64,000 nt of DNA. Source: Bacteroidota bacterium (GTDB lineage: Bacteria > Bacteroidota > Bacteroidia > AKYH767-A > 2013-40CM-41-45). The DNA is taken from positions 177,923 through 241,922 of the forward strand of contig JADKKE010000033.1 of NCBI GenBank assembly GCA_016720655.1. The letters are read 5' to 3'. The position numbers and the translations under genes are program-made. The notes beneath the pieces are model-generated. The model was not told the origin of the DNA. It searched no databases and saw nothing but the letters and a program-made list of their open reading frames with translations. Positions 1-11,454 of this stretch are shown here, piece after piece; the first letter of the stretch is position 1; every line of letters begins with the position of its first letter.

Positions 1-909
1 TCAACTACATAACCTGTCTTTGTGCCGGCGCACTTGTCATCTCCGTCAGCAACTCCATCTTTATCCGCGTCGGGACAACCTTTCAATGTTGACAATCCAG
101 CGACAAGAGGACAAGCATCATCTTTATCAGTAATTCCATCACCATCTGCATCGGGACAACCTTTCATTTCTGTGATACCGGCTACATCCGGACAAGCATC
201 GATGTAATCGGCGATTCCGTCTTTGTCTTTATCCAACGGACATCCTGTTGCATCTACAGCAACTCCTGTCGGTGTATTTTCGCATTTGTCAAGACGATCT
301 GCCACACCGTCTTTATCAGCATCTTTTTTATTTCCAAAATTGAATGTAAGACCAACCATGTGCAATAAGTATGCATCATTTTCTGAGGCGACAACACCAT
401 CACGGGTATCAGCAGTTGAGTAGAGGAAAGTTTCCTGAATATTCAACATGAGAGTTGGGCCCATTTTGAAATTAATTCCGGCTCCGAAAGAAGGTGCAAT
501 GAAGTCGATCTTCTTTTCCGTGATGCCTACATTCTTATCAAATAGCATGGCTCCTCCGCCAACAAAAAGATAAGGTCGAACGGGAGAGGCCGGACCCAAA
601 ATATTGAATCTGAAATTTACCGAAACAGTAGAAACATCCCTGCGAAATCTTCCGTTCGGACGATTGTAACCAAGTGTTCCTTTCGTCGCCAATAAATTCA
701 AATCAAGATGCCCACCGATGTACCTGGAGAAAGTGATTCCGCCGAAACCGTACAAAGGCATATCTGTTTTGTAAAAATCATTGCCAAGGTCACCTTTGTA
801 CTGTCCAACTCCTGCATGCAAACCAATGTTCCATTTTTTGTCCTGGGTTTGTGCCTGCACGTAGCATGAAGCAATTATTGAAAGTGAAATAAGTAATATT
901 TTTTTCATA
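1..909 (-). CDS. OmpA-family outer-membrane protein with thrombospondin type-3 (TSP3) calcium-binding repeats; 3' end lies beyond the window start
   Basis: On the minus strand, ATG at 907-909 is preceded by an A-run. The product begins [20 protein letters not shown] (signal peptide) followed by a beta-barrel-like segment. Repeated DKDGVADxxDxC / [17 protein letters not shown]3 motifs follow. The ORF is absent from the ORF track because it runs off the window edge. The + strand ORFs 22..207 and 223..423 are its antisense shadow. Confidence 0.7.
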
Positions 910-933
910 ATAATATTGTATATAATTTACCAC

Positions 934-998
934 AAAGGTGAGCAGCCTTCTAAAAACCGATGTTATACAATTCTATCAATTTGTTACATCATTCACAC
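934..998 (-). promoter_or_regulatory. Three-element promoter motif, instance f (GTGAATgATGTAAC-N15-TATAAC-N24-CCTTTG), upstream of the OmpA/TSP3 gene
   Basis: The minus strand reads gtgtgaatgatgtaacaaattgatagaattgtataacacgg...cacctttg. Spacing matches the other five instances within 1 nt. The ATG lies about 25 nt downstream of the TTTG element. Confidence 0.5.
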
Positions 999-1376
999 TT
1001 AACTAAAATTGCGAAATGGCATTAATGGCAATTACACATCTTTAATATTGTCTTCCAAATTGCCAGACTCTTTGAAAAAAGGGTAGATGGAATTGGTGTA
1101 CAATGACGTGTTCTTGTTCAATCCCCTGCTTAATGAATGACAAATTGTTTGTAAGTGTTGTCGAAATCAGAGTCAAATACTTCAATTTTAACTTCAATTG
1201 AGGCTTTTGGATATAAAGAACCTTCTTATTCGTATTTTTAAAAAAACGGACAATTGAAATTCATACATTTGCAAAACGAATAGTCTTCGGCAAAGCGATC
1301 TTCGTGCTTTGAACGGTTTTTTTTTAAGGAGTTTTATTTTTGAAAAACCGTAAACTATAATTCAAAAAAAATATAT

Positions 1377-1937
1377 TTGAAAATCTACATAAAATACATG
1401 GTGAGTATTCGCTGCAAAATGCTCGTTAAGGAGGAGCTTAAGCAGCTGGGATTACATTATGTAAATATTGGTTTGGGAGAAGTTGAGATTATGGAAACCA
1501 TTTCTCATGCTCAACGGGAAAAGTTAAAACAAGCTTTATTGATTTCCGGCCTGGAATTGATGGACGACAAAAAAGCCATGTTGATTGAAAAGATAAAAAA
1601 CATCATTATTGAAATGATTCATTATTCGGAAGAGATTCCGAAAGTAAAGTTTTCCGATTATTTGAGTCAAAAATTGGATTACGACTACACCTATTTATCA
1701 AATCTTTTTTCAGAAACCGAAGGAATTACCATTGAACATTTTTTATTGATTCACAAAATTGAGAAAGTCAAAGAATTAATAATATATGATGAACTGAATC
1801 TGACAGAGATTTCCTATAAGCTTCACTATAGCAGTGTTGCACATTTGTCTAATCAGTTTAAAAAAATTACAGGTCTGACCCCTTCCTTTTTCAAAGCACT
1901 TAAAAATAAGAAGCGCAAGCCCTTAGAGGATATGTGA
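1377..1937 (+). CDS. AraC/XylS-family transcriptional regulator (short form, C-terminal HTH_18)
   Basis: The C-terminal HTH region reads LTEISYKLHYSSVAHLSNQFKKITGLTPSFFK. The 186-aa ORF has a possible alternative start at 1398. Confidence 0.75.
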   Translation: MKIYIKYMVSIRCKMLVKEELKQLGLHYVNIGLGEVEIMETISHAQREKLKQALLISGLELMDDKKAMLIEKIKNIIIEMIHYSEEIPKVKFSDYLSQKLDYDYTYLSNLFSETEGITIEHFLLIHKIEKVKELIIYDELNLTEISYKLHYSSVAHLSNQFKKITGLTPSFFKALKNKKRKPLEDM

Positions 1938-1997
1938 ATGATGTAAGCATCCGTTAAAATTTTGTAACACTTTTCAGCATTAAGAGAAATAATTTTG
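1934..1997 (+). promoter_or_regulatory. Three-element promoter motif, instance a (GTGAATgATGTAAG-N15-TGTAAC-N25-TAATTTTG)
   Basis: The sequence is gtgaatgatgtaagcatccgttaaaattttgtaacac...aataattttg. It lies upstream of the lipoprotein gene at 2015. Confidence 0.5.
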
Positions 1998-2014
1998 TCT
2001 CTTAATCCTGTATC

Positions 2015-2608
2015 ATGCAACGGAAATACACATCAAAGCAAATCATCCGGTATCTTTTCAATAGTTGCTGTTTTGCAAGCCTTTTCGCTTGTAATCCCGG
2101 TGATAATACAATTACTATCAGTAAAGGACTTCTGGATTCGATGCAGGTACAGATTGCTACTTTTACTGTTAATCAGGGTTGGATTGATAAAAACCTGATG
2201 GCCTTTGATACACTTGACTTTACGGTTTTTAGTAATCAGGATTGGACACGAATTCATGAAAGTCATTCAAAAGACATCAAAGTAAATTGGCCGGATGGTC
2301 ACTTTACAATAGGGATTGATCAACACATCAACGACTTGAAAAATATGTTCGTCTATGCACCCGATACGCGAATCAGGCAACATCCAATTCGCTTTGGTTC
2401 CGGAAACATGACCTGTGTAACGGGGGTTATGACTGGCACTTTTAGCAAATCCATGCCGATTGGGAATGGAAAAACCATTCAGCCGACTGGTAAATCCTTT
2501 AGCATTCCAATGTGCACTGTCGGAATTTGGAAGACAGGTGTGATGATTGAAGAATTTCTTTTTTGGGACAATCATGCTTTTATGAAACAAATTGGAATTT
2601 TAAAATAA
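2015..2608 (+). CDS. Lipoprotein with an NTF2/SnoaL-like (ester-cyclase-like) fold, putative
   Basis: The 197-aa ORF has a lipobox-like N-terminus (LFACNPGDN). The family call is tentative. Confidence 0.45.
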   Translation: MQRKYTSKQIIRYLFNSCCFASLFACNPGDNTITISKGLLDSMQVQIATFTVNQGWIDKNLMAFDTLDFTVFSNQDWTRIHESHSKDIKVNWPDGHFTIGIDQHINDLKNMFVYAPDTRIRQHPIRFGSGNMTCVTGVMTGTFSKSMPIGNGKTIQPTGKSFSIPMCTVGIWKTGVMIEEFLFWDNHAFMKQIGILK

Positions 2609-2626
2609 CAATTAAAAACACAATCC

Positions 2627-3213
2627 ATGATATTAGATGCAACAATGGAAGACAAAAGGGAAAAATGGGCAATTGATATGGCTCACAGTGAACTCTCGTT
2701 CAATTAAAGCATCTCATGATTGCTCATGTAAAGGGATCTTTTAAAAGTTTCGATGCAAGCATTTATACAACTGGAAAAGATTTTTCGAGTGCAGAAATCG
2801 ATATTTGGATTGACCCGGCTTCAATTTCAACGGGGGATGAAAAAAGAGACGAACATTTGAAAGGGCCTGATTTTTTTGATGTCCTCAATCATCCTCAAAT
2901 TGCTTTTACTTCTGAAACAATCGGAGAAGCAGACTCAAATGGTAACCATGAACTCTGGGGTGAATTGAGAATGAAAGGAATTAAGAAGAACCTGAAACTC
3001 AATGTTCACTTCGGAGGAATGATGACGGATCCATGGGGCAATGAAAAAGCAGGTTTCACTGTGACCGGTGTGATCAATCGAAATGAATGGGGGCTTATCT
3101 GGAATACCACCATTGAGACTGGCGGAATTTTGGTGAGCGAGGAAGTGAAAATTTCTTGTGAACTTGAATTGACGATGGTAAACCAGAAAGATCTTTCAAT
3201 GGTATTGGAATAA
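2627..3213 (+). CDS. YceI-family (polyisoprenoid-binding) protein, interrupted by a single-base frameshift near 2700
   Basis: The N-terminal piece MILDATMEDKREKWAIDMAHSELSFN* (frame 2) joins MIAHVKGSFKSFDASI... (frame 1, ORF 2716..3213). Together they give the YceI signature W.ID..HS.L.F..KHL...V.G.F. Adding one T at the aattt-type dinucleotide restores SELSFNLKHLMIAHVKGSF. Confidence 0.65.
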
Positions 3214-3366
3214 ACCTTGAATTTCATTTTCCAAAATTTATTTACTGCTGAGGAATTAGTGATTGGTTGAAATCTCTCCTATTTCGTCTATTCGATTAGT
3301 CCGTTGAATTGAGCACTTTTATCTTGTTTTTTGAATACACCGGGTTACACGATTGTGTGATATAAA

Positions 3367-3432
3367 GTGTGAATTATGTAACTTATCCTTAAAGTTATGT
3401 AACGGGTTTCATTCTTCCTGTGCTTAATTTTG
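3367..3432 (+). promoter_or_regulatory. Three-element promoter motif, instance e
   Basis: The sequence is gtgtgaattatgtaacttatccttaaagttatgtaacggg...cttaattttg, with the same 22-nt and 31-nt spacings. It lies upstream of the lmo0937-like gene. Confidence 0.5.
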
Positions 3433-3486
3433 TTGAATTAAATCATATTTCAGTTCATTCACAATTCAGTTAAAAAAATCAATAAA

Positions 3487-3642
3487 ATGGGAAATCTTCT
3501 GTATATAATAGCTGTCATTCTGGTGATAAGCTGGTTGATAGGGTTTGTAGGCTTTCATGCCGGTGGAATTATTCATATTCTATTGGTTATTGCCATCATT
3601 GTGGTTTTGTTAAGCGTTATACAAGGTAGAAAGCCCTTATAA
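3487..3642 (+). CDS. lmo0937-family small membrane protein (51 aa)
   Basis: The product is MGNLLYIIAVILVISWLIGFVGFHAGGIIHILLVIAIIVVLLSVIQGRKPL. It has two TM segments and the family-typical GF..H..G..IH.LLVIA.I..LL.VIQGRK signature. It is below the ORF-track size cutoff. Confidence 0.6.
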   Translation: MGNLLYIIAVILVISWLIGFVGFHAGGIIHILLVIAIIVVLLSVIQGRKPL

Positions 3643-3680
3643 GATAAGCGATGTTCGTTTATTGGAGATGAGGCAATGCT

Positions 3681-5249
3681 ATGAGATTTCTTGCAGTGCT
3701 ATTAATTTTATGTAGTTTAACATTAACGTTATTTTCTCAACAGAAAGTACCGCAGAAAAAGCAAGCTACATTTCCTTCTGATTCGATAGTACCTGGTAAT
3801 AGTTCACCGGAGAAACAGATTAAAAAATCGAAGGAAGAAAAAGTAGAACATTTGTCGGACTCTGTCGGTAATGAGCCGATGCAAAGCAACAGAGTGGATA
3901 CCACTGTGCAAAACAAGTATGGCGACCTGCTCAATGACGATTCTATTTATTCAAAAAGGTATCCAATGTGGATTCCGGTTCTTGAGTCTATCGGATCAAA
4001 TGCAATAACGTGGGCTGGAGATCGCTATATTTTGAGAGACGAATATGCCAGGGTTGGATTGAAATCCTGGAAATCCAATTTTAAAAATGGATGGGAATGG
4101 GATGTCGACAGGTTTGGAATAAATTTTATCGGACATCCTTATTCAGGGACACTTACGTTTAATTCAGGTCGTTCCAATGGATACAATTATTTTCAATCTT
4201 TTTCAATTGCGGTAGGGGGGAGTCTGGTGTGGGAATATTTAGGAGAGAATACGCGACCCTCCTACAATGACATCATCAATACACCGGTGAATGGTGCATT
4301 TCTCGGAGAAATATTGTATCGATTAAGTTCGAACATTCTGGATGACCGGACAAGAGGTTTACCGAGAATTTCTCGTGAAATCCTCGCGGGGATATTAAAT
4401 CCTATGCGTGGACTCAACCGAATACTTCAAGGGAAAACGTTCCATAGAACCAACAAGGAAGTCTACCAAAAAGAGCCGCTGAATGTTACTCTTTATACCG
4501 GGCTGCATTATGTGAATGAGGGTCACAAAGATTTTGGAAAAGGAACAAGAAGTGAATTGTTAAACGCTCAATTCGATTATGGGAACCCATTCGAAATCCG
4601 TTCGAGGAAACCATTTGATTTTTTTAAACTTCGAACCGAGCTTAATTTTGGAGTCGGGCGAAAGATTCTTGATAATGTGACAGGATACGGTATCTTAACA
4701 GGTAAAAACATCAAGCTGAAAAAGCAATCAATCTTGATTGGTTTATTTCAGCACTATGATTATTGGGATAACAAGACTTTTGAGTTGGGTTCGATCGCAT
4801 TTGGCGGTGGACTTTTTTCAAAAATACCACTGAGTAAAACATCAGAAATTTATACAAATATTCACATTGCTGTAATTCCATTTGCCGGCAACAGCACTCA
4901 CTTTGGTCCGGATTCTTCTGAATTCAGGGATTATAATTTCGGTGACGGTTTGGAAGGAAAGTTTGAAAGTACAGTTAACATCGGTAAATATGCTTCAGCA
5001 TCCTTTGTCTATTATTATTATATCATCAGAACATTTGTTGGAGCAAAGGGAAATAATTATATCGGGATTCTAAAACCCAGAATTACTATTCGACTGTACA
5101 AGGACCTCAGTATTGGTTTTGAACATTTTGTTTATTACAATGACAGGTACTTACGGGATTTAGCGGCAATTCATTCTGCAAGAACAGAACAAAAGTTATT
5201 TCTTTCACTCTATTTTGAAGACAAGCAAAGAAGAGGCCATTACAATTGA
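3681..5249 (+). CDS. Secreted hypothetical protein (signal peptide; Bacteroidetes DUF-type)
   Basis: The 522-aa ORF begins MRFLAVLLILCSLTLTLFSQQ. No catalytic motif was recognised. Confidence 0.55.
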   Translation: MRFLAVLLILCSLTLTLFSQQKVPQKKQATFPSDSIVPGNSSPEKQIKKSKEEKVEHLSDSVGNEPMQSNRVDTTVQNKYGDLLNDDSIYSKRYPMWIPVLESIGSNAITWAGDRYILRDEYARVGLKSWKSNFKNGWEWDVDRFGINFIGHPYSGTLTFNSGRSNGYNYFQSFSIAVGGSLVWEYLGENTRPSYNDIINTPVNGAFLGEILYRLSSNILDDRTRGLPRISREILAGILNPMRGLNRILQGKTFHRTNKEVYQKEPLNVTLYTGLHYVNEGHKDFGKGTRSELLNAQFDYGNPFEIRSRKPFDFFKLRTELNFGVGRKILDNVTGYGILTGKNIKLKKQSILIGLFQHYDYWDNKTFELGSIAFGGGLFSKIPLSKTSEIYTNIHIAVIPFAGNSTHFGPDSSEFRDYNFGDGLEGKFESTVNIGKYASASFVYYYYIIRTFVGAKGNNYIGILKPRITIRLYKDLSIGFEHFVYYNDRYLRDLAAIHSARTEQKLFLSLYFEDKQRRGHYN

Positions 5250-5255
5250 ATAAAA

Positions 5256-6086
5256 ATGAGAGCGGAGCAATATAAATTATTTCAATTTCTGAAGATCGTT
5301 ATATTGACGTTTGTATTTCTTACTGTAATTGTAAGTCAGGGAAATGCACAGGATACACTTCAGGGAAAGAAATTTACTGACTACAATTTTTCTCGTTTTA
5401 CACATGAAACGGGTTTGTTTTTCGTGCAACCAGTAAAATGGAAGGGCGCCGATTGGATCCGTTTCGGAGCAATTGCCATCCTGACGGTTTCGATAATTCA
5501 GGTTGACAATGATGTCCGAAAACTGGCTCTTGACAATCCGAAGTATGTAAATACGGTACCAATGGAAATTGGTAATCAATGGGGTGGATTTTTTCTCGTT
5601 CCAATTTCCGCTGTGGCATTGTTGACACATGGAACATTAAGTGATAACAATACAACTAAAAAATTAGGATTTGAAATTGCTCAGGCGGCACTATATTCTG
5701 AAACCATTTCTTTTATTTCAAAAGGCTGTATTGGGAGATCAAGACCATTTACAAACAGAGGGTTTAACGATTATAAGCCGTTTACTTTTTTTGATAGTCC
5801 TCAGAATTCATTTCCGGCGGGTCATGTAGATGCAGCATTTGCATTGTCTACCGTTCTGGCGAAGAACACAGATTCCGGTTGGTTGAAGGTTGCCTCCTAT
5901 ATTCCAGCGGGACTAACCGTTGTATCCCGAATTTATCAAGATGAGCACTGGGCTTCAGACGTTTTTTTAGGAGGCGCAATTGGCTATTTTGTGGGGAATT
6001 GGGTGGTGAATTTACATGAACAAAAAGAATCAACAATTGAATTGACTTCAGTATTCCCTCTTCAAATAAAAATTGCTTTGAATTAA
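5256..6086 (+). CDS. PAP2-superfamily phosphatase (phosphatidic acid phosphatase type 2 / haloperoxidase fold), secreted
   Basis: The three PAP2 motifs are present: KGCIGRSRPF, FPAGHVDAAFA and SRIYQDEHWASDV. There is a signal peptide. Confidence 0.8.
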   Translation: MRAEQYKLFQFLKIVILTFVFLTVIVSQGNAQDTLQGKKFTDYNFSRFTHETGLFFVQPVKWKGADWIRFGAIAILTVSIIQVDNDVRKLALDNPKYVNTVPMEIGNQWGGFFLVPISAVALLTHGTLSDNNTTKKLGFEIAQAALYSETISFISKGCIGRSRPFTNRGFNDYKPFTFFDSPQNSFPAGHVDAAFALSTVLAKNTDSGWLKVASYIPAGLTVVSRIYQDEHWASDVFLGGAIGYFVGNWVVNLHEQKESTIELTSVFPLQIKIALN

Positions 6087-6088
6087 AA

Positions 6089-6940
6089 TTGAAAATGAAG
6101 TTTAAAATTATCATATCACTCTTAATTGCCTTCAGCTTGAATAGCTCTGTCTTTTCTCAAGAGAAGAAAAATGAAGTCACAGCTCCGGAAACACCCAAGG
6201 AGAAACAATTGGAGAAGAAACTTGGAAAACGCTTATACAGCATTCCTCAATTCGCACACGAAACAATTTTATTTATCAAACAGCCAAGTAAGTGGAGTGG
6301 AACAGATTGGCTAAAGTTGGGTATTGTAACAGCCGCAACCTTTGCTGTGATGCCTTTCGACGAACAGATCACGAATTCTACGCAAGGTGAGCAACGATAT
6401 TATAATAGTGTACCTATTGTTGGTGGAAGAGTTTATGGAGAATGGTATGCGATTGGCGGAGTAGCATCGGTTTTTGGTGTGTATGGTCTTATAGCGAAGG
6501 ACACTGCTGCGAAGAAAATAACGATTGAATTGTTGCAAGCCGGACTCTATTCAGAAATAATAACCACTGTATTAAAGGTTGCCATTGGAAGAAAGAGGCC
6601 GGTCGTGACAGAAGATGCATTCTCCTATCGGCCATTCACCCTTCTGGAATACAACTTTCACTCTATGCCCAGCGGCCATACGACAAGTGCATTTGCCTTA
6701 TCAACAGTGATGTCGCGGCATGCGAAGTCTGGTACACTTAAGGTTCTGGCTTACATCCCGGCTGGTTTTACCATGTTTTCAAGAATCTACCAGCACCAAC
6801 ATTGGTTATCCGATGAAATTTTGGCTGCAGCAATTGGATATTTCGCAGGCAATTGGGTCGTGGATTTACATGAAGGGAGAAGACACAAAATAAATGTTAC
6901 CTCTCTTTATCCACTCGGAGTTTCTTATTCCTTCAATTGA
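6089..6940 (+). CDS. PAP2-superfamily phosphatase, tandem paralogue of the preceding gene
   Basis: The motifs are KVAIGRKRPV, MPSGHTTSAFA and SRIYQHQHWLSDE. The start lies 3 bp after the upstream stop. Confidence 0.8.
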   Translation: MKMKFKIIISLLIAFSLNSSVFSQEKKNEVTAPETPKEKQLEKKLGKRLYSIPQFAHETILFIKQPSKWSGTDWLKLGIVTAATFAVMPFDEQITNSTQGEQRYYNSVPIVGGRVYGEWYAIGGVASVFGVYGLIAKDTAAKKITIELLQAGLYSEIITTVLKVAIGRKRPVVTEDAFSYRPFTLLEYNFHSMPSGHTTSAFALSTVMSRHAKSGTLKVLAYIPAGFTMFSRIYQHQHWLSDEILAAAIGYFAGNWVVDLHEGRRHKINVTSLYPLGVSYSFN

Positions 6941-7012
6941 TCTATAGGATATCAATTTAAAAACACTGCAAACAATATTGAATATAAGTTCACAAATTAA
7001 AATTATACTACG

Positions 7013-7231
7013 ATGAATACTAAAAACACCGGAATTATCCTGATTGTAATTGGGATGATCATGATGATTTATACAGGATTCAATTATGTCACAACTAAAA
7101 AAGTTGTAGATCTGGGTCCGATTGAAATTAACAAAGAAACAAACCACCCCGTGCAATGGTCGCCGATTATTGGTGGCATACTGTTGGTTGGAGGCATTGT
7201 GCTCCTTTCTACTAGCAAAGGCAAACAATAA
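7013..7231 (+). CDS. Small hypothetical membrane protein (2 TM)
   Basis: The 72-aa ORF has two hydrophobic helices and sits in a compact coding context. Confidence 0.4.
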   Translation: MNTKNTGIILIVIGMIMMIYTGFNYVTTKKVVDLGPIEINKETNHPVQWSPIIGGILLVGGIVLLSTSKGKQ

Positions 7232-7235
7232 TGAA

Positions 7236-7301
7236 GTGTGAATCATGTAACAAATTCGAAAAGTTGTGTAACAGTTACTGATGGGAAAGCAAAGACCTTT
7301 G
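7236..7301 (+). promoter_or_regulatory. Three-element promoter motif, instance d
   Basis: The sequence is gtgtgaatcatgtaacaaattcgaaaagttgtgtaacag...agacctttg. It lies upstream of the beta-barrel gene at 7324. Confidence 0.5.
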
Positions 7302-7323
7302 GGAAAAGTTTTATACACAGCTT

Positions 7324-8004
7324 ATGAAAAATTTAATCAATAAGACGAATGGGATATTGTTCGCCTGGATTCTCTTAACCGGAAGTATTTCAACTGCGAA
7401 TGCTCAGAAAGCAGAATTCGGAGTGAGGTTAATGCCAACGTTTTCAACCTTCGACTTGAAAACGAGCGGAGGAAATTCAATTAAAGGCGAGGTTGTTTAT
7501 GGATTTGGTGTCGGTGCGTTTTTTGGATTTAACTTTACAGATAATGTGGGTATTCAAATAGAAGGGATCTACAATTCAATTAACCAAAAATACAAAGAGG
7601 TTGATGTTGAAAGGAAAGTAAACTTGAGATATGTGAATATTCCATTATTGCTTTCTTTGAATACAGGTAAAAGCCGCGCTGTTAATTTGAATGTAGTAGC
7701 CGGACCACAAATTGGTCTCAGTGTCGGAAGTAGTGTAACCACCACCGGTTCCGACGGTGTTGCGAATTCAAAAGCAGTACTTGCAGTGAAGAAGGGTGAC
7801 CTTGGATTGGCATATGGAGCCGGTTTGGATTTCGGTCTTAACTCCAGCCATACGGTTCGCCTTGGACTTGGATTCCGTGGCGTGTTTGGATTGATTGACA
7901 TTAGCGATAACAGTGAAACAATGACTACGGATTCGTATTACATCCTTGATAAAACGAAGATTAAAACATATTCAGGATATCTCGGTCTTTCTATTTTATT
8001 TTAA
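7324..8004 (+). CDS. Outer-membrane beta-barrel protein (porin-like, OMP_b-brl family)
   Basis: The ORF has a signal peptide ending ANAQ. Alternating-hydrophobic beta strands are present, with a C-terminal ...GLSILF. Confidence 0.6.
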   Translation: MKNLINKTNGILFAWILLTGSISTANAQKAEFGVRLMPTFSTFDLKTSGGNSIKGEVVYGFGVGAFFGFNFTDNVGIQIEGIYNSINQKYKEVDVERKVNLRYVNIPLLLSLNTGKSRAVNLNVVAGPQIGLSVGSSVTTTGSDGVANSKAVLAVKKGDLGLAYGAGLDFGLNSSHTVRLGLGFRGVFGLIDISDNSETMTTDSYYILDKTKIKTYSGYLGLSILF

Positions 8005-8040
8005 ACACCATCATTGCTCATTTGAACAAGCGTTTTTTCT

Positions 8041-8072
8041 GAAAACCTGTTTCTTTAGGGGGACAGGTTTTC
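8041..8072 (+). terminator. Rho-independent terminator hairpin downstream of the beta-barrel gene
   Basis: A perfect 10-bp stem is formed by GAAAACCTGT ... ACAGGTTTTC. Confidence 0.5.
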
Positions 8073-8204
8073 ACGCATTCAAACCCGATCCAGGACAATT
8101 GAAGCCATAGATCTTTTGTATGTTGCAAAAAGACATCTCGAAAAATGTTCACTTCCACAGGGCATTAATTTTCACTCGGGAAATCATTAATTTTATTTCA
8201 ATAC

Positions 8205-8268
8205 GTGAATGATGTAAGTCTTTTTAAAAATTATGTAATTCATTTTTGATGAATGTATTGAACCTTTG
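8205..8268 (+). promoter_or_regulatory. Three-element promoter motif, instance b
   Basis: The sequence is gtgaatgatgtaagtctttttaaaaattatgtaattc...gaacctttg. It lies upstream of the CsbD-like gene at 8322. Confidence 0.5.
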
Positions 8269-8321
8269 TATCTGAAGAATCTGACAAAAGCCAACGTGAA
8301 AAACAGTCAATACAATTTATC

Positions 8322-8504
8322 ATGATGCAAGGGATTAGCGGAAATTGGGAGGAACAAAAAATTGAATTAAAAAAGAGATTTGCTCTTTTGACTGACAATG
8401 ATTTATTGTTTGCTGATGATAGAAAAGCAGAAATGTGGATTAAGCTTGAAACTAAACTTGGGAAGTCGAAAGAGGAATTGCAGAAAATCATGTCGGCTTT
8501 ATAG
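8322..8504 (+). CDS. CsbD/YjbJ-family general-stress protein (UPF0337)
   Basis: GNWEEQKIELKKRFALLTDNDL...KLGKSKEEL matches the YjbJ pattern GNWKQFKGKVKEQWGKLTDDD...G..KIQ..YG..K. Confidence 0.7.
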   Translation: MMQGISGNWEEQKIELKKRFALLTDNDLLFADDRKAEMWIKLETKLGKSKEELQKIMSAL

Positions 8505-8526
8505 TTGTATGATTGTTGATTAGTAT

Positions 8527-8559
8527 ACCGTTTAACGTGAAGCGTTAAACGGTTTTTTA
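8527..8559 (+). terminator. Rho-independent terminator
   Basis: The stem is CCGTTTAACG-tgaag-CGTTAAACGG, followed by TTTTTT. Confidence 0.6.
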
Positions 8560-8589
8560 AACTAAAAAGAAACTCAAAAAACAGATAAA

Positions 8590-9054
8590 ATGAAAAAATC
8601 AATTTTTACTCTGGCACTACCACTTGGTATAGCCCTAACGGTACTGTCCGCTTGTAGCTCACCGGAACAAAAGGAAGCCGCAGCCCAGGACAAAGTTCAG
8701 GACGCGAAAGAAGAATTAAATACGGTTCAGGCCAATACGAATGCCGAGGAACAAAAAGCGGCCAGTATCGAAGAATGGAAATTATTTAAAAGCGATACTG
8801 AAATACGGATAGGAAATAATGAAAAGCGAATTGCGGAATTAAAGGACAAAATGAAAAAGCCCGGCAAGACGCTTGACCCTTTGTATAAATCACGCATCGA
8901 TGCACTTGAATTGAAAAACCAGGAACTCAAATCAAGGTTGGAAGCATATGAAAAGAATCAAAGCAATTGGGAAACATTCAAACGGGAGTTTAATCACGAC
9001 ATGGATGAATTGGGTGTCGCTTTAGCAGACTTTACAGTGGACAATAAGAATTAA
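8590..9054 (+). CDS. Coiled-coil lipoprotein, hypothetical
   Basis: The lipobox is LSACSS. The rest is K/E-rich helical sequence. Confidence 0.5.
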   Translation: MKKSIFTLALPLGIALTVLSACSSPEQKEAAAQDKVQDAKEELNTVQANTNAEEQKAASIEEWKLFKSDTEIRIGNNEKRIAELKDKMKKPGKTLDPLYKSRIDALELKNQELKSRLEAYEKNQSNWETFKREFNHDMDELGVALADFTVDNKN

Positions 9055-9101
9055 AAACCATTTAGAAGAAAGATCCGGTCATTTAGCGCCCTTATGGAAC
9101 A

Positions 9102-9165
9102 GTGAATCATGTAAACTTTTAATAGAATCATGTAACACGTCAAAAAGCTATGTTCCCCAACTTTG
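9102..9165 (+). promoter_or_regulatory. Three-element promoter motif, instance c
   Basis: The sequence is gtgaatcatgtaaacttttaatagaatcatgtaacacg...ccaactttg. It lies upstream of the second CsbD-like gene. Confidence 0.5.
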
Positions 9166-9202
9166 TAGTGTAATAATTCCATTACACTTAATTCAACAAA
9201 CC

Positions 9203-9403
9203 ATGACAACTCCAACGCCAATTGTGGCTCCAACTAAAGGCAACTGGACTGAGCAAAAAGCAAAGTTGAAAGAAAAATTTTCAACGTTGACTGACGCTGA
9301 TCTTCAGTATGAAAACGGTAAAAAAGATGAAATGATGGATAAAATCCAAATCAAACTCGGAAAAACGAAGGATGAACTTGCTGCAATTATTGCGGCCCTT
9401 TAA
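9203..9403 (+). CDS. CsbD/YjbJ-family general-stress protein, second copy
   Basis: The matching region is GNWTEQKAKLKEKFSTLTDADLQYENGKKDEMMDKIQIKLGKTKDEL. Confidence 0.75.
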   Translation: MTTPTPIVAPTKGNWTEQKAKLKEKFSTLTDADLQYENGKKDEMMDKIQIKLGKTKDELAAIIAAL

Positions 9404-9422
9404 TTCTTTTTAATTCGATACA

Positions 9423-9457
9423 ACATCGTGATGCGGTCAGCGTCACGATGTTTTTTC
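9423..9457 (+). terminator. Rho-independent terminator between the convergent csbD-like and rluF-like genes
   Basis: The stem is CATCGTGA...TCACGATG, followed by TTTTTT. Confidence 0.55.
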
Positions 9458-9460
9458 ATT

Positions 9461-10225
9461 TTACACAGATTCTGAACCTTTACTATTTGACACATCTGCC
9501 GTTTTGCTGGAATTTTGTACCAGCCGATTTATTTCTGCAAGTTCATCAGCAGTAAATTCCCTCCATGTTCCTATCGGGAGATCCCCGAGAGAAATATTCA
9601 TGATTCTTATTCTTTTTAATTTCACCACTTCATAATCCAGGAAGGAACACATCCTGCGAATTTGTCGATTCAGTCCTTGGTTGAGAATAATTCGAAACAC
9701 GTATGTACTTAATTTTTCAACGAAACATTTTGAAGTAACTGTATCTAAAATAGGAATTCCATTTCCCATTCGTTGGATGAATTCTGTCGTTATTGGTTTA
9801 TCGACAGAAACGATGTATTCCTTTTCATGATTGTTTCCTGCTCTTAATATTTTATTTACAATGTTCCCGTCGCTGGTTAAAAAAATTAATCCTTCGGATG
9901 CTTTATCAAGCCTTCCAACAGGAAAAATACGTTGTGGGTAATTTATAAAATCGATAATGTTCTTTTCTATTTTATTTTCTGTTGTACAGGTGATTCCAAC
10001 AGGTTTATTAAATGCGATGTAAACTACTTTGTCAGGGTTTGTTATTGTTTTACCATCAATAGCAATCACATCGCCGGGGAAAACTTTATCACCCAGAATG
10101 CCCGGATTCCCATTGATGGTGACCCGTCCTTGTTCAATTATTTTATCTGCTTCCCTGCGGGAGCAATAACCGGTATCACTGATTGCTTTATTCAGTCGAA
10201 TTGTATTTGTGTTTTCAGGAACCAT
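9461..10225 (-). CDS. rluF: 23S rRNA pseudouridine synthase, RsuA/RluB/RluF family
   Basis: An S4 domain is followed by the catalytic GRLD motif in VGRLDKASEGLIFLTSDG. The protein is 254 aa. Confidence 0.8.
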   Translation of the reverse strand: MVPENTNTIRLNKAISDTGYCSRREADKIIEQGRVTINGNPGILGDKVFPGDVIAIDGKTITNPDKVVYIAFNKPVGITCTTENKIEKNIIDFINYPQRIFPVGRLDKASEGLIFLTSDGNIVNKILRAGNNHEKEYIVSVDKPITTEFIQRMGNGIPILDTVTSKCFVEKLSTYVFRIILNQGLNRQIRRMCSFLDYEVVKLKRIRIMNISLGDLPIGTWREFTADELAEINRLVQNSSKTADVSNSKGSESV

Positions 10226-10417
10226 CTGAGGATTGTTAAAATCAACCGAATGAGTAGTTTTTTAAAGGAAATTATCTATTTTAGAATCTTACAAAATACT
10301 CAATTATTTATTTCATTGCGCATTTTCTATGCAAACATATTTTCCCTCTTCTTTAACAAGCATCTCTAAAGAGGAAATCTGAATCTTGAATAATTTAGCA
10401 GTCAACAAATAGAACTT

Positions 10418-10819
10418 ATGGAAAAAGGAAACAAAGAATCTCCCTGGAAATTAAAGACTCCACCACTTTCGTCTGAATTTGAAATGTATAAGGACGAAAA
10501 AGATGGAAAAGAAATTCTGGTTTGTACAGTTGGGAAAACGGTATTGCATTACGATTATCGATGTCTCAATGATTTGCATGCAATGTTGAAAAAGCACAAA
10601 GACTGGATGGAACTCGGAAGTGCAGACGAACAAAAGCCCGCTAAGGAAGGAACAGTCGAGGAGTGGGGCCGTTCTCCGAAGAACCCGGTTGGAGGTTGGT
10701 ATGGATTAAAAAAGGGACTTCGCGGAAGATTTGGAATGTATATTCCTCCACTCATGGAGAAATTGGGCCTCGCTGAGTTGACTCATGAAGCGAAAGGAAA
10801 TAGGATGAAAGCAAAATAA
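10418..10819 (+). CDS. Hypothetical protein
   Basis: The 133-aa ORF has no recognised motif. Confidence 0.4.
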   Translation: MEKGNKESPWKLKTPPLSSEFEMYKDEKDGKEILVCTVGKTVLHYDYRCLNDLHAMLKKHKDWMELGSADEQKPAKEGTVEEWGRSPKNPVGGWYGLKKGLRGRFGMYIPPLMEKLGLAELTHEAKGNRMKAK

Positions 10820-10910
10820 GCAGAAGAGACGATTTTTGGGTTTAGTAAAAAGGCTATAATATTTATTCAAATCTTCTTTTAAAATAAACGTATAATTCAA
10901 TCTGATCACG

Positions 10911-11258
10911 ATGGCTTACGATGAAAAACTAGCAAACCATACAAGAGAAATTATTTCCCTCACACATAAAAAAGTTGAAGAGAAGAAAATGTTTGGTGGA
11001 CTTTGTTTTATGGTCAATGACAAAATGTGTGTAGGCGTGGAACAGGATCGTTTAATGGTACGCCTTGATCCGAAAAAGTACGATGAGGTAATTGAACTTG
11101 AGGGCTGTCAACCAATGGACTTCACCGGTAAAGTAATGAAAGGATATGTTTTTGTCGACAAGGCCGCTTTGAATACTAAAAAAAGATTAGAGTTCTGGAT
11201 CAAACTTGCTCTTGAGTATAATAAAATTGCTAAGGCCAGTAAGAAGAAGAAAAAATAG
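10911..11258 (+). CDS. TfoX/Sxy N-terminal-domain protein
   Basis: MFGGLCFMVNDKMCVGVEQDRLMVRLD matches the TfoX_N core. Confidence 0.65.
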   Translation: MAYDEKLANHTREIISLTHKKVEEKKMFGGLCFMVNDKMCVGVEQDRLMVRLDPKKYDEVIELEGCQPMDFTGKVMKGYVFVDKAALNTKKRLEFWIKLALEYNKIAKASKKKKK

Positions 11259-11394
11259 CACTCTGTGTTTTCGATCGCACTCAATGATATTTTCTTTGTT
11301 CAGACAACCAGACTTTACTATCGATTCAGTTTAAGGTAAAATGAGCAGCTTGAATTTTAGTAATTCTTCGTTTTCATACGAGGCCACCTGATTT

Positions 11395-11436
11395 TAAAAA
11401 AGAAAGCCGTCACAGAAGTGACGGCTTTCTTTTTTA
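11395..11436. terminator. Bidirectional terminator between TfoX_N and giant gene 1
   Basis: The element reads AAAAAA-AGAAAGCCGTCAC-agaa-GTGACGGCTTTCT-TTTTTT. Confidence 0.65.
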
Positions 11437-11454
11437 ATGGAGTCGGATTTGTAT

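Follow-up and report, generated by a model that had tools for sequence, protein, structure and literature searches.

A three-element promoter motif and its neighbouring AraC-family gene recur across Bacteroidota and appear to define an undescribed stress regulon

Six sites in the window, the whole 64-kb stretch of Bacteroidota DNA analysed here, share one precisely spaced architecture around a gene for a 186-aa AraC-family protein. We consider it probable that these sites are activator-dependent promoters, with the locally encoded protein as the most likely cognate activator. Motif and neighbouring AraC gene recur across the phylum and apparently mark an activator-driven stress regulon, of which no earlier description was found in the searchable literature, Rfam or NCBIfam. 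The features are as follows; bit scores refer to a weight matrix built from sites in other genomes.

3..908, minus strand: outer-membrane beta-barrel protein with thrombospondin type-3 repeats (Pfam OMP_b-brl 8.8e-10, TSP_3 8.4e-12); extends past the window start
933..1002, minus strand: promoter site 1, exact motif, 47.2 bits, precedes the OMP_b-brl/TSP_3 gene; distal 20-bp box 1002-983, proximal box 972-960 (GTATAAC variant), -7-like CACCTTTG 940-933
1377..1937, plus strand: candidate regulator, 186-aa AraC-family protein, TTG start (Pfam HTH_18 3.8e-14)
1928..1997, plus strand: promoter site 2, exact motif, 43.5 bits; distal box 1928-1947, proximal box 1958-1970, canonical -7 box TAATTTTG 1990-1997
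2015..2608, plus strand: SnoaL-like lipoprotein, first gene past site 2 (Pfam SnoaL 8.8e-10)
2627..3213, plus strand: YceI-like gene (Pfam YceI 1e-32 for 2716-3213)
3363..3432, plus strand: promoter site 3, exact motif, 50.9 bits; distal box 3363-3382, proximal box 3393-3405, -7 box TAATTTTG 3425-3432
3487-3642, plus strand: DUF5670/lmo0937-family mini-protein (Pfam, NCBIfam)
3681-5249, plus strand: DUF3943 protein (Pfam, NCBIfam)
5256-6086, plus strand: first PAP2 protein (Pfam, NCBIfam)
6089-6940, plus strand: second PAP2 protein (Pfam, NCBIfam)
7013-7231, plus strand: 72-aa membrane protein
7232..7301, plus strand: promoter site 4, exact motif, 52.2 bits; distal box 7232-7251, proximal box 7262-7274, -7-like GACCTTTG 7294-7301
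7324..8004, plus strand: outer-membrane beta-barrel protein (Pfam OMP_b-brl_2 1.7e-19)
8199..8268, plus strand: promoter site 5, exact motif, 53.6 bits; distal box 8199-8218, proximal box 8229-8241 (TGTAAT), -7-like AACCTTTG 8261-8268
8322..8504, plus strand: CsbD/YjbJ-like 60-aa protein (NCBIfam PRK10428 (YjbJ) E 1e-4)
9096..9165, plus strand: promoter site 6, exact motif, 44.0 bits; distal box 9096-9115, proximal box 9126-9138, -7-like CAACTTTG 9158-9165
9203..9403, plus strand: CsbD-family 66-aa protein (Pfam CsbD 2.9e-7)

Architecture and promoter character of the sites

The sequence GTGAATNATGTAA occurs exactly six times in the window (984-996 on the minus strand, and 1934, 3369, 7238, 8205 and 9102), and the pattern TGTAA-N16-TRTAAY returns the same six sites where 0.21 are expected, none of 100 shuffles reaching six. 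With the 70-column other-genome matrix the sites score 43.5-53.6 bits, compared with 8.8 bits for the best of 50 window shuffles, and no further position in the rest of the window attains 8 bits. Thus the shared architecture described in the first-pass annotation is real and lies far beyond chance. The consensus of the 70-bp site is AAATGTGTGAATnATGTAAC-N10-ARTTrTGTAACa-N21-nAcYTTTG. Two of the earlier distances have to be corrected: the box starts had been placed 22 nt apart, while the in-register period from TGTAA to TGTAA is 21 nt (exactly 21 in 199 of about 220 homologous box pairs), and the 30-nt spacing given for the minus-strand instance was a miscount, TTTG starting 31 nt past the start of the second TGTAAC in all six sites. 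The elements that had been named stand, yet the motif extends further than described, since aAATGT lies 5' of GTGAAT, ARTTr precedes the second TGTAAC, and the spacer between the boxes is T-rich and then A-rich. In an alignment that includes 93 metagenome sites not matching the search pattern, conserved columns are limited to the three elements; flanks and spacers between the elements are not conserved across sites, and columns 40-55 hold almost no information. The distal 20-bp site consists of two conserved blocks about 9-10 bp apart, which could correspond to the two HTH units of one AraC-type domain in adjacent major grooves, and a block spacing of about 9 bp, not 10.5, counts against this explanation. 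At the proximal site the ARTTrTGTAAC block alone is kept.

Promoter association had been proposed from the window, and the homologous sites agree with it: they are directional and promoter-proximal, with an ORF start 10-120 nt downstream in 88% of 452 sites compared with 16% when the orientation is reversed and 32% for random positions. The median distance from TTTG to ATG is 40 nt. The flavobacterial sigmaA box is TAnnTTTG at -12 to -5 (PMC9723704). TTTG occupies the place of the Bacteroidota sigmaA -7 box and the second repeat the -33 position, so both earlier assignments fit. The likeness to a Bacteroidota sigmaA promoter (-33 TTTG / -7 TAnnTTTG) lies in nAnYTTTG at a promoter-like distance from start codons and in a perfect TAATTTTG in two of the six window sites. 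Unlike in such a promoter, only 25% of sites carry the first T of the -7 box, the base before TTTG is preferentially C, and the TGTAAC box replaces the -33 TTG, which is absent at the expected position of the aligned sites. Transcription would start a few nt past TTTG, and leaders would measure roughly 10-50 nt.

The AraC-family protein and its linkage to the motif

The candidate regulator has an HMA-like domain of beta-alpha-beta-beta-alpha-beta topology at its N-terminus, followed by a linker helix and an AraC-type DNA-binding domain with two HTH units. In Foldseek searches with the structure model (pLDDT 84.9), the N-terminal part matched Atx1/GolB/CadA HMA domains (probability 0.97-0.99) and the C-terminal part AraC/MarA/SoxS DNA-binding domains (TM about 0.8; 1bl0, 7w5w, 1d5y). 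Identity across Bacteroidota orders is 66-78%, the N-terminus MK[LI]YIKYMVS is kept in orthologues, and the HTH helices are near-invariant, matching the invariance of the motif. Cultured bacteria that carry the regulator include Emticicia, Arcicella rosea, Flavobacterium fluvii and Solitalea koreensis.

Comparative linkage strongly supports the AraC gene as the partner of the motif, as had been suspected from its position. Motif sites are present in 78 of 80 orthologue loci, in line with the expectation of conservation in related genomes (245 sites in all, 0 in shuffles); 228 of the 245 share the orientation of the regulator, and their density is highest within 1 kb of its gene. In 30 of the 80 loci a site lies at most 250 nt upstream of the regulator gene, in many lineages at a distance of about 90 nt from its start, and in 25 a site lies on the stop codon of the gene (together 55/80). 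The weight matrix and these loci depend on selection by AraC; the window and a metagenome set are independent checks. Among 120 metagenome loci (674 kb) picked by the motif alone, 16 contain an AraC orthologue where about 0.15 are expected (Poisson p < 1e-24, assuming one copy per 3-6 Mb). AraC-like proteins are the commonest gene family there (22 ORFs in 19 loci, 12 of the 19 with stop-codon overlap), and no other DNA-binding family is found among the top gene clusters. In about 85% of these loci the regulator is not nearby, so the linkage is statistical and not obligatory; the regulon is compact, as the first-pass annotation had it, within this window, but in the unbiased sample most sites are not next to the regulator. 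In the window, GTGAAT of site 2 overlaps the AraC stop codon (atG-TGA-AT). The AraC gene itself has no motif upstream and instead canonical TAnnTTTG boxes at 1335-1342 and 1372-1379; autoregulation is therefore not universal.

The geometry matches a class-II activator site of the AraC/XylS type. Two protomers may bind in tandem on the same DNA face, 21 bp apart, probably held together by the HMA-like domains, with the proximal site at the place that the -33 TTG takes in a Bacteroidota sigmaA promoter. The missing -33 element and the degenerate -7 box (nAcYTTTG, not TAnnTTTG) suggest that RNA polymerase depends on the bound activator, and activation would resemble that by AraC at araI1-I2 and XylS at Pm. 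AraC/XylS operators consist of 21-bp same-orientation tandem sites over the -35 of a weak promoter. Both regulators, AraC of E. coli (araI1-araI2, pBAD) and XylS of the Pseudomonas TOL plasmid (Pm), belong to the same DNA-binding domain family as the candidate regulator. The motif shares with their operators two same-orientation sites with a 21-bp period, of which the distal is the stronger, while the weaker proximal one overlaps the -35-equivalent element of a weak promoter. The differences are a small HMA-like ferredoxin fold (about 62 aa) in place of a cupin/ligand-binding domain, a core promoter of the Bacteroidota -33/-7 type, unrelated box sequences, and a stress and envelope regulon instead of a catabolic operon. 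MarA/SoxS/Rob, with their 20-bp asymmetric marbox, are similar in the two-block site, the two-HTH domain (structural TM about 0.8), the dispersed stress-type regulon and class-II placement at some promoters. However, MarA and SoxS bind a single box as monomers, whereas here a second in-register box is kept at every promoter and the protein has an additional N-terminal domain.

Alternative readings of the sites

It is improbable that the AraC-family protein acts mainly as a repressor or anti-activator that blocks the core promoter until a signal arrives. The proximal box does overlap the core promoter region, and the canonical -7 boxes of the window regulator gene could allow constitutive synthesis. 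Repressed promoters, however, normally have a good core, whereas these sites lack the -33 TTG and have a systematically degenerate -7 box; activators of this family (AraC, XylS, RhaS, MelR) classically use tandem direct repeats on one face that end at the -35 equivalent. The probable orthologous island of F. psychrophilum is low in all 64 samples, which would fit repression, but such laboratory silence is equally expected of an uninduced activator. Similarly unlikely is another DNA-binding protein encoded elsewhere, of the LytTR response regulator or CRP/FNR type, as the reader of the repeats, with the AraC gene merely a regulon member. LytTR-type response regulators use direct repeats with a 21-bp period, which fits; the distal box holds AAATGTGA-like bases resembling a CRP half-site, most motif sites lie away from an AraC gene, and the regulator gene stands in synteny with a two-component system. 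Yet its response regulators consist of a receiver domain only, the motif is an asymmetric direct repeat and not the palindrome expected for CRP/FNR, no DNA-binding family other than AraC is enriched in motif-anchored loci, and fixed placement on the AraC stop codon or about 90 nt upstream is the usual sign of a cognate autoregulated factor.

Very unlikely, in our view, is a -35/-10-type promoter of an alternative sigma factor for general stress, for instance one of the ECF type. The GTAAC of the motif is similar to ECF -35 elements (GGAAC, GTAAC and the like), the F. psychrophilum table includes an ECF promoter of the GTAAC type, and the gene content is like that of sigmaB/sigmaS/EcfG regulons. 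But no conserved element follows TGTAAC at 16-17 nt, the sole downstream element is 24 nt off and looks like a sigmaA -7 box, sigma-factor genes are not enriched near the sites, and the duplication of TGTAAC 21 nt upstream with a longer distal block would be needless for a sigma factor. Six near-identical copies in 8 kb might also suggest a transcribed RNA element or a dispersed mobile repeat, a reading to which we give almost no weight: an Rfam search of the motif returned no match, the copies neither share a fold nor fold with unusual stability (z-scores -1.3 to +1.7), the repeats are direct, not inverted, with unconserved flanks and inter-element spacers, they keep a fixed position with respect to the start codons downstream, and transcription is predicted to begin only downstream of the motif.

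Regulon content and signalling context

Pfam and NCBIfam confirmed most earlier gene annotations in the window (OMP_b-brl with TSP_3, HTH_18/AraC, SnoaL, YceI, DUF5670, DUF3943, two PAP2, OMP_b-brl_2 and CsbD); of the two supposed YjbJ/CsbD paralogues, 9203..9403 matches Pfam CsbD, while the likeness of 8322..8504 is weak and Pfam gave no match. Both are followed 3' by terminator hairpins (9422-9452 and 8527-8553, respectively). The ATG lies 24 nt past TTTG at site 1 (at 908) and 17 nt past it at site 2, where the YceI-like gene is probably co-transcribed with the SnoaL-like lipoprotein gene. Its reading frame is broken near 2703, the 5' part (WAIDMAHSELSFN*) lying in another frame; intact YceI homologues stand after the motif in other loci. 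Genes 3487..7231 on the plus strand are tightly spaced and form a probable operon. Elsewhere DUF5670 follows the motif 18 times, PAP2 6 times and homologues of the 7324..8004 beta-barrel protein 8 times; homologues of the DUF3943 and small membrane proteins also occur there.

Across the phylum the genes after the motif (among them CsbD, lmo0937/DUF5670, OmpA, BON, YtxH, Usp, ferritin, YceI, MlaE, ice-binding-like) are of the general-stress/envelope type, as anticipated, CsbD being the most frequent small member elsewhere (48 instances); the regulon would thus comprise small stress proteins and envelope proteins. This content overlaps that of the sigmaB (Firmicutes), sigmaS (Gammaproteobacteria) and PhyR-NepR-EcfG (Alphaproteobacteria) regulons. 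CsbD/YjbJ, lmo0937-family, YceI, BON/OsmY-like, YtxH, Usp and ferritin/Dps-like proteins are members of these regulons in other phyla. Unlike those systems, the promoter geometry here shows no alternative sigma, and an activator appears to work on the housekeeping one. The probable orthologous locus of F. psychrophilum is silent, together with its neighbours, in 32 conditions including several stresses (lowest expression quartile throughout, hardly any start sites across about 50 kb), which gives no support to simple "general stress" induction. In about half of the genomes the regulator may be autoregulated and co-transcribed with the PAS hybrid histidine kinase and receiver-only response regulator (Pfam) of the syntenic two-component system, which would probably supply the signal; this genomic coupling is reminiscent of the PhyR pathway. 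The AraC-family protein is a candidate general-stress regulator for Bacteroidota.

The composite promoter motif in the window and across Bacteroidota

Six non-coding stretches of the window share one promoter architecture, in which a distal box, a proximal TGTAAC box and a downstream TTTG element follow each other with common spacing. Within the 64-kb window the pattern GTGAATNATGTAA is matched perfectly six times, always between 984 and 9114, and TGTAA-N16-TRTAAY picks out these six sites again (0.21 expected; 0 of 100 shuffles reach six). Aligned on the G of GTGAAT, all six sites carry TTTG at column 63, the minus-strand copy included, and the gaps from TTTG to the ATG measure 24, 17, 54, 22, 53 and 37 nt. 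A 70-column matrix built from foreign sites scores the window sites at 43.5-53.6 bits, compared with less than 8 elsewhere in the window and 8.8 for the best of 50 shuffles. At 28868-28880, a one-mismatch match lacks an in-register second box and TTTG, stays below 8 bits and was taken as chance. Pattern searches, reading of the sequence from 1 to 10200 and ORF listing agree on the common architecture that the first-pass annotation had proposed. Two of its measurements have to be corrected: the boxes, given as 22 nt apart, are separated by 21 nt when TGTAA is compared with TGTAA in register, and the minus-strand site, for which a spacing shorter by one nt had been claimed, is spaced like the other five. 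The spacer between the boxes (columns 14-27; for example window 8219-8232) has a T-run in columns 14-19 and is then A-rich in columns 22-25, which suggests a segment that may be intrinsically bent or have a narrow minor groove between two protomers.

The gene calls were checked with Pfam and NCBIfam. The assignments made from sequence reading stand, with a weaker match for the YjbJ/CsbD-like ORF at 8322-8504.

Genes around the sites, annotated by Pfam/NCBIfam (window positions)
3-908, minus strand: OMP_b-brl plus TSP_3
1377-1937: HTH_18/AraC protein
2015-2608: SnoaL-like lipoprotein
2716-3213: YceI
3487-3642: DUF5670 (the lmo0937 family)
following genes: DUF3943, then two PAP2 genes
7324-8004: OMP_b-brl_2
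8322-8504: YjbJ/CsbD-like ORF, weaker match
9203-9403: CsbD

Some further features of the region were observed. The YceI gene is apparently frameshifted (2627-2716): its 5' part (…WAIDMAHSELSFN*) and the remainder at 2716-3213 are in different frames, and set against intact homologues it appears to lack one T in aatt(t)aaag near 2703, which makes it a pseudogene or points to an indel in the assembly. A coiled-coil lipoprotein gene (8590-9054), weakly similar to the sll1863 stress-protein family, lies between the two csbD units; it lacks its own motif site and follows a terminator (8527-8553), and its homologues in other genomes have the motif directly 5' in five instances. On the minus strand, 11455-17577 encodes a 2040-aa secreted protein in which NPRVIT(N) peptide units are repeated and Ig-like repeats are numerous, and upstream of it (11360-11434) there is a sub-threshold Rfam match to Thr_leader (29 bits versus a gathering score of 55). 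A terminator scan of the window is overall at chance (8 versus 7.8 expected), with the two post-csbD hairpins among those flagged, and a scan for E. coli-type sigma-70 promoters is uninformative (31 versus 32.5 expected).

A scan of one genome per species yielded at least 590 loci encoding a relative of the AraC-family protein, the best 80 of which were kept with 10-kb flanks. Represented among the 80 are Flavobacterium, Emticicia, Arcicella, Lacihabitans, Marinifilum, Paludibacter, Draconibacterium, Prolixibacteraceae, Saprospiraceae, Sphingobacteriales, Aquimarina and others. A loose match finds 217 sites in these loci, with the consensus aAATGTGTGAATnATGTAAC-tttTtt-N4-ARTTrTGTAACa-N21-nAcYTTTG and information content limited to the elements of this consensus. 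The boxes are tandem and in the same orientation: the AATnrTGTAAC units align in register, and the offset from TGTAA to TGTAA is 21 nt in 199 of about 220 pairs. This bears out the proposed direct repeat of about two helical turns, the arrangement that characterizes AraC/XylS class-II sites. At a matrix threshold of 20 bits, sites occur in 78 of the 80 orthologue loci, with 245 sites in 1.31 Mb versus none in shuffled loci, so that the motif is conserved in related genomes; 228 of the 245 lie on the strand of the regulator. Motif sites score about 27-62 bits, with no false positives in 1.3 Mb of shuffled sequence. The Bacteroidota-type regulator is also found on contigs labelled as Candidatus Saccharibacteria, Cyanobium or Balneolaceae MAGs (loci L030, L063, L012 and L075). 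The L030 contig carries eight motif sites, and at least the first two of these contigs are probably mis-binned.

The sites are placed like promoters. At 88% of 452 testable sites, an ORF of 50 aa or more begins 10-120 nt downstream in motif orientation, compared with 16% in the reverse reading and 32% at random positions, and the next ATG-initiated ORF follows TTTG at a median distance of 40 nt (interquartile range 31-56 nt). The flavobacterial sigmaA -7 box is TAnnTTTG at -12 to -5 (PMC9723704). The element nAcYTTTG resembles this box, and two window sites are perfect (TAATTTTG). The columns of the element have A at 0.85, T at 0.99, T at 0.99, T at 0.72 and G at 0.56; the first T of the box is present in only 25% of sites, and C is favoured before TTTG. 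TAnnTTTG is not enriched window-wide (55 versus 62 expected), so the short box alone is no evidence. If TTTG is the -7 box with G at -5, the proximal box would cover about -44 to -32 and the distal one about -74 to -55. A -33 TTTG/TTG 19-21 nt upstream of the -7 box is absent, with a-c-t-T-n in columns 35-39 and no G above 0.13. Together with the degenerate -7 box, this leaves the core promoter incomplete, as expected for an activator-dependent promoter.

The AraC-family protein and its link to the motif

The regulator belongs to the AraC/XylS family by its C-terminal two-HTH domain of about 100 aa (Pfam HTH_18, 3.8e-14; HTH_AraC, 2.5e-10), and profile matches in the PDB are the DNA-binding domains of YesN, AraT and XylR. 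NCBIfam holds no specific model for it, all matches being far below cut-offs. Its relatives number in the thousands. The 120 best-scoring ones among the matches listed, which include Emticicia, Ferruginibacter and Solitalea, are 73-100% identical over 91-100% of the query, and at least 590 species-level genomes conserve the protein at 66-78% identity. The N-terminus MK[LI]YIKYMVS is kept across the alignment, with positions 2 and 3 nearly invariant, which validates the TTG start at 1377. An AlphaFold2 model based on the orthologue alignment (mean pLDDT 84.9, pTM 0.71) predicts a beta-alpha-beta-beta-alpha-beta domain (residues 2-62), a long helix (65-83) and a seven-helix AraC domain. In Foldseek searches the C-terminal half of the model matches the DNA-binding domains of AraC, MarA, SoxS, Rob, YesN and AraT at a target-normalised TM of 0.7-0.8, with 1bl0, 7w5w and 2k9s among the structures matched by the two-HTH domain.

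The N-terminal 62 aa adopt the ferredoxin-like fold of HMA proteins in the model (DSSP: E2-6, H11-23, E28-32, E35-38, H44-56, E60-62). Foldseek pairs this domain with the HMA copper chaperones Atx1, GolB, CadA and TTHA1718 with a probability of 0.97-0.99 and a target-normalised TM of 0.62-0.71, at weak E-values of 0.15-0.4. Pfam detects no HMA here even at E up to 1, and in place of the CxxC of the first loop the orthologues have an invariant S10-x-x-C13; one paralogue (L180:3298-3855) has CSRC at this position. We infer a degenerate HMA fold that would serve in dimerisation or partner binding.

Several lines of evidence connect this protein with the motif. In the 80 orthologue loci, site density is highest in the kilobase upstream of the regulator gene and at the gene (6.0 and 3.9 per 10 kb), compared with 0.3-1.1 per 10 kb at 4-10 kb upstream. 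A site lies within 250 nt upstream of the regulator start in 30 of the 80 loci, and in another arrangement, present in 25 loci and the same as in the window, the G-TGA-AT of a site overlaps the regulator stop codon; one or the other is found in 55 of the 80. For an unbiased sample, metagenomes were scanned by the motif alone, giving 120 loci (674 kb). An orthologue (at least 55% identity) is present in 16 of these against about 0.1-0.2 expected for a single-copy gene (p <1e-24), and AraC-like ORFs form the largest ORF family (22 ORFs in 19 loci). The stop-codon site recurs in 12 of these 19 loci, and in others the site is about 90 nt upstream of the start. The regulon had been described as compact. 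This is right for the window, with six sites in 8.2 kb and zero in the remaining 55 kb, but does not extend to the unbiased sample, in which most sites lie away from the regulator, although they tend to cluster among themselves (at least two sites in 65 of 120 loci).

Site geometry and conservation fit this link as well. An almost invariant motif is paired with an almost invariant DNA-binding domain. In the distal site of 20 bp, the blocks TGTGAA and TGTAAC are conserved at a separation of about 9-10 bp, and the two-HTH AraC/MarA domain contacts two such blocks in adjacent major grooves. The proximal site consists only of the AATnrTGTAAC unit, 21 bp downstream of its distal counterpart. Strong distal and weak proximal sites on one face of the DNA, ending at the -35 equivalent, are known from araI1-I2 and from the XylS sites at Pm, and the motif shows the same tandem arrangement. 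Position, the unbiased sample, matching conservation and geometry all point to the adjacent AraC-family protein as the predicted binder of the motif.

The window copy of the regulator gene has no motif site upstream and is preceded by canonical TAnnTTTG boxes at 1264-1271, 1335-1342 and 1372-1379; an ordinary sigmaA promoter may therefore drive it. Just upstream of the gene there is also a hairpin with a long run of T (1291-1325), so that this promoter would possibly stand behind a terminator- or attenuator-like element. Paralogues were also seen. Two AraC copies occur in one locus in L092 (853-2046), L175 (6593-10706) and L192 (964-2393), tandem-adjacent in L092 and L192, and in L092 the second copy is preceded, at about 90 nt, by the stop-codon site of the first. 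More distant paralogues (45-52% identity; L087, L105 and L180, one of them with CxxC) are likewise near motif sites.

Other readings of the motif

A role of the regulator as repressor at the motif sites fits poorly with promoters that miss the -33 element and have a degenerate -7 box. Reading of the repeats by a different transcription factor, LytTR-like or CRP-like, is not supported: the motif-anchored loci are not enriched in any other DNA-binding family, none appearing among the top ORF clusters of the 120 loci, and the syntenic response regulators are without any DNA-binding domain. Conserved elements at a fixed distance could also be recognised by an ECF or other alternative sigma factor. 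This is disfavoured, as no conserved -10 element such as CGT follows 16-17 nt after TGTAAC, where information is about zero (columns 40-55), the TGTAAC box is duplicated 21 nt upstream with an extra distal block, and a sigma gene is neither enriched near nor linked to the sites. An RNA element or mobile repeat is excluded for practical purposes. Rfam gives no match in the region (1-12000, E up to 1), its sole hit being the sub-threshold Thr_leader outside, and the six sites have no stable or shared fold (z-scores -1.3 to +1.7).

The interpretation of the first-pass annotation, a general-stress regulon with a shared cis-element that the AraC-type protein would activate, is supported. Judged by its sequence features, the system would be an AraC/XylS-type class-II activator with tandem direct repeats, mechanistically a well-known kind. 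The motif had been called undescribed, and we found no account of it, of the regulator or of the regulon in the searchable full-text literature (most subscription journals lie outside), Rfam or NCBIfam. The YjbJ motif of the Breaker lab (PMC11109978) is a Streptococcus RNA candidate and unrelated to the promoter motif.

Regulon content, a probable signalling module and meaning for Bacteroidota

The first ORFs downstream of 445 sites (210 from the motif-anchored set) were clustered, and representatives were annotated by Pfam and NCBIfam.

Families downstream of motif sites (instances)
Ice_binding/DUF3494 proteins with T9SS sorting tail: 49
CsbD: 48
the regulator itself: 37
OmpA with coiled coil: 26
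DUF5670/lmo0937: 18
small cupin: 18
DUF6600: 15
receiver-only response regulators: 13
MlaE: 12
OMP beta-barrel: 8
BON: 7
YtxH: 7
PAP2: 6
ferritin: 4
Usp: 3
YceI: 2

Several small membrane proteins are found repeatedly, too. Among the families, many are hallmark members of the sigmaB, sigmaS or EcfG regulons in other phyla. With CsbD/YjbJ, BON, YtxH, Usp, ferritin, YceI and the lmo0937 family in the clusters, the stress-type content proposed for the window genes is found again, and the label "general stress type" is reasonable for the content.

In 44 of the 80 orthologue loci the next gene module on the regulator's strand includes a hybrid histidine kinase downstream, its representative having three PAS domains, HisKA, HATPase and a receiver domain (Pfam), and 41 loci have a receiver-only response regulator of about 144 aa close by (kinase/receiver examples in orthologue loci: L052:10581-13283, L040:12584-13018 and L056:10548-14350). 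Two arrangements are largely mutually exclusive (Fisher p = 6.6e-7 and 2.4e-6, 80 loci). In arrangement A a site upstream of the regulator is combined with a kinase downstream (27 loci, 27 of the 30 with an upstream site), and in arrangement B a stop-codon site goes without a downstream kinase (21 loci, 21 of the 25 with a stop-codon site). The window shows arrangement B, and a search of it for homologues of the syntenic kinase and receiver was negative. From this synteny, the PAS hybrid kinase and the receiver-only protein are the probable signalling module of the regulator. Arrangement A would place regulator, kinase and receiver in one autoregulated operon, coupling a positive feedback loop to a phosphorelay.

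In F. psychrophilum OSU THCO2-90, a 540-nt AraC-family gene (THC0290_1150) is followed directly by a 64-aa ORF, then by genes for a hybrid kinase and for a response regulator of 144 aa. This probable orthologous locus matches arrangement A in order and sizes; F. urumqiense (L056) has AraC gene, kinase and 144-aa regulator in the same order. In F. psychrophilum, 103 CDS are in the lowest expression quartile in 64 of 64 samples (PMC9723704 Table S4), and all four genes of the probable locus are among them, together with many THC0290_1141-1210 neighbours encoding Usp, ABC permease and ATPase, outer-membrane and peptidoglycan-binding proteins. The locus is silent in 32 of 32 conditions, and the TSS table has no more than two start sites, both weak, between 1,337,317 and 1,386,917 (PMC9723704). 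The low-expression region around it spans about 50-60 kb. This silence fits a regulon that is off without its activating signal, and the stresses sampled (growth phase, osmotic, peroxide, plasma, freshwater) may not provide that signal.

Unusual for an activator of this kind are the phylum-wide conservation of regulator and 70-bp composite promoter together, the HMA-like N-terminal domain predicted by the model, the apparent link to a PAS hybrid kinase and receiver-only phosphorelay, and a stress-type regulon that would be run by an activator, not by an alternative sigma factor. Only tentatively, and with more doubt than confidence, we propose that the HMA-like/AraC protein masters a phylum-wide stress/dormancy programme on the housekeeping sigma factor, with a normally silent island, of the sort observed in F. 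psychrophilum, that receives its signal via the syntenic PAS kinase and receiver; the phosphorylated receiver would perhaps dock on the HMA-like domain.

Gene regulation in Bacteroidota is poorly mapped. To our knowledge, the phylum has no known equivalent of sigmaB, sigmaS or EcfG, and we know of no regulator of its "general stress" genes of the CsbD/BON/YtxH/Usp type. The analysis yields an information-rich cis-element, a specific candidate regulator and a probable sensory module of PAS hybrid kinase and receiver-only protein, and the question is directly testable in cultured Flavobacterium, Emticicia, Arcicella and Solitalea. The motif promoter would also be a ready-made, tightly controlled part for Bacteroidota genetics. 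The regulon can be predicted by sequence alone in thousands of genomes and MAGs, and it could account for a gene block that is silent in the largest flavobacterial expression compendium.
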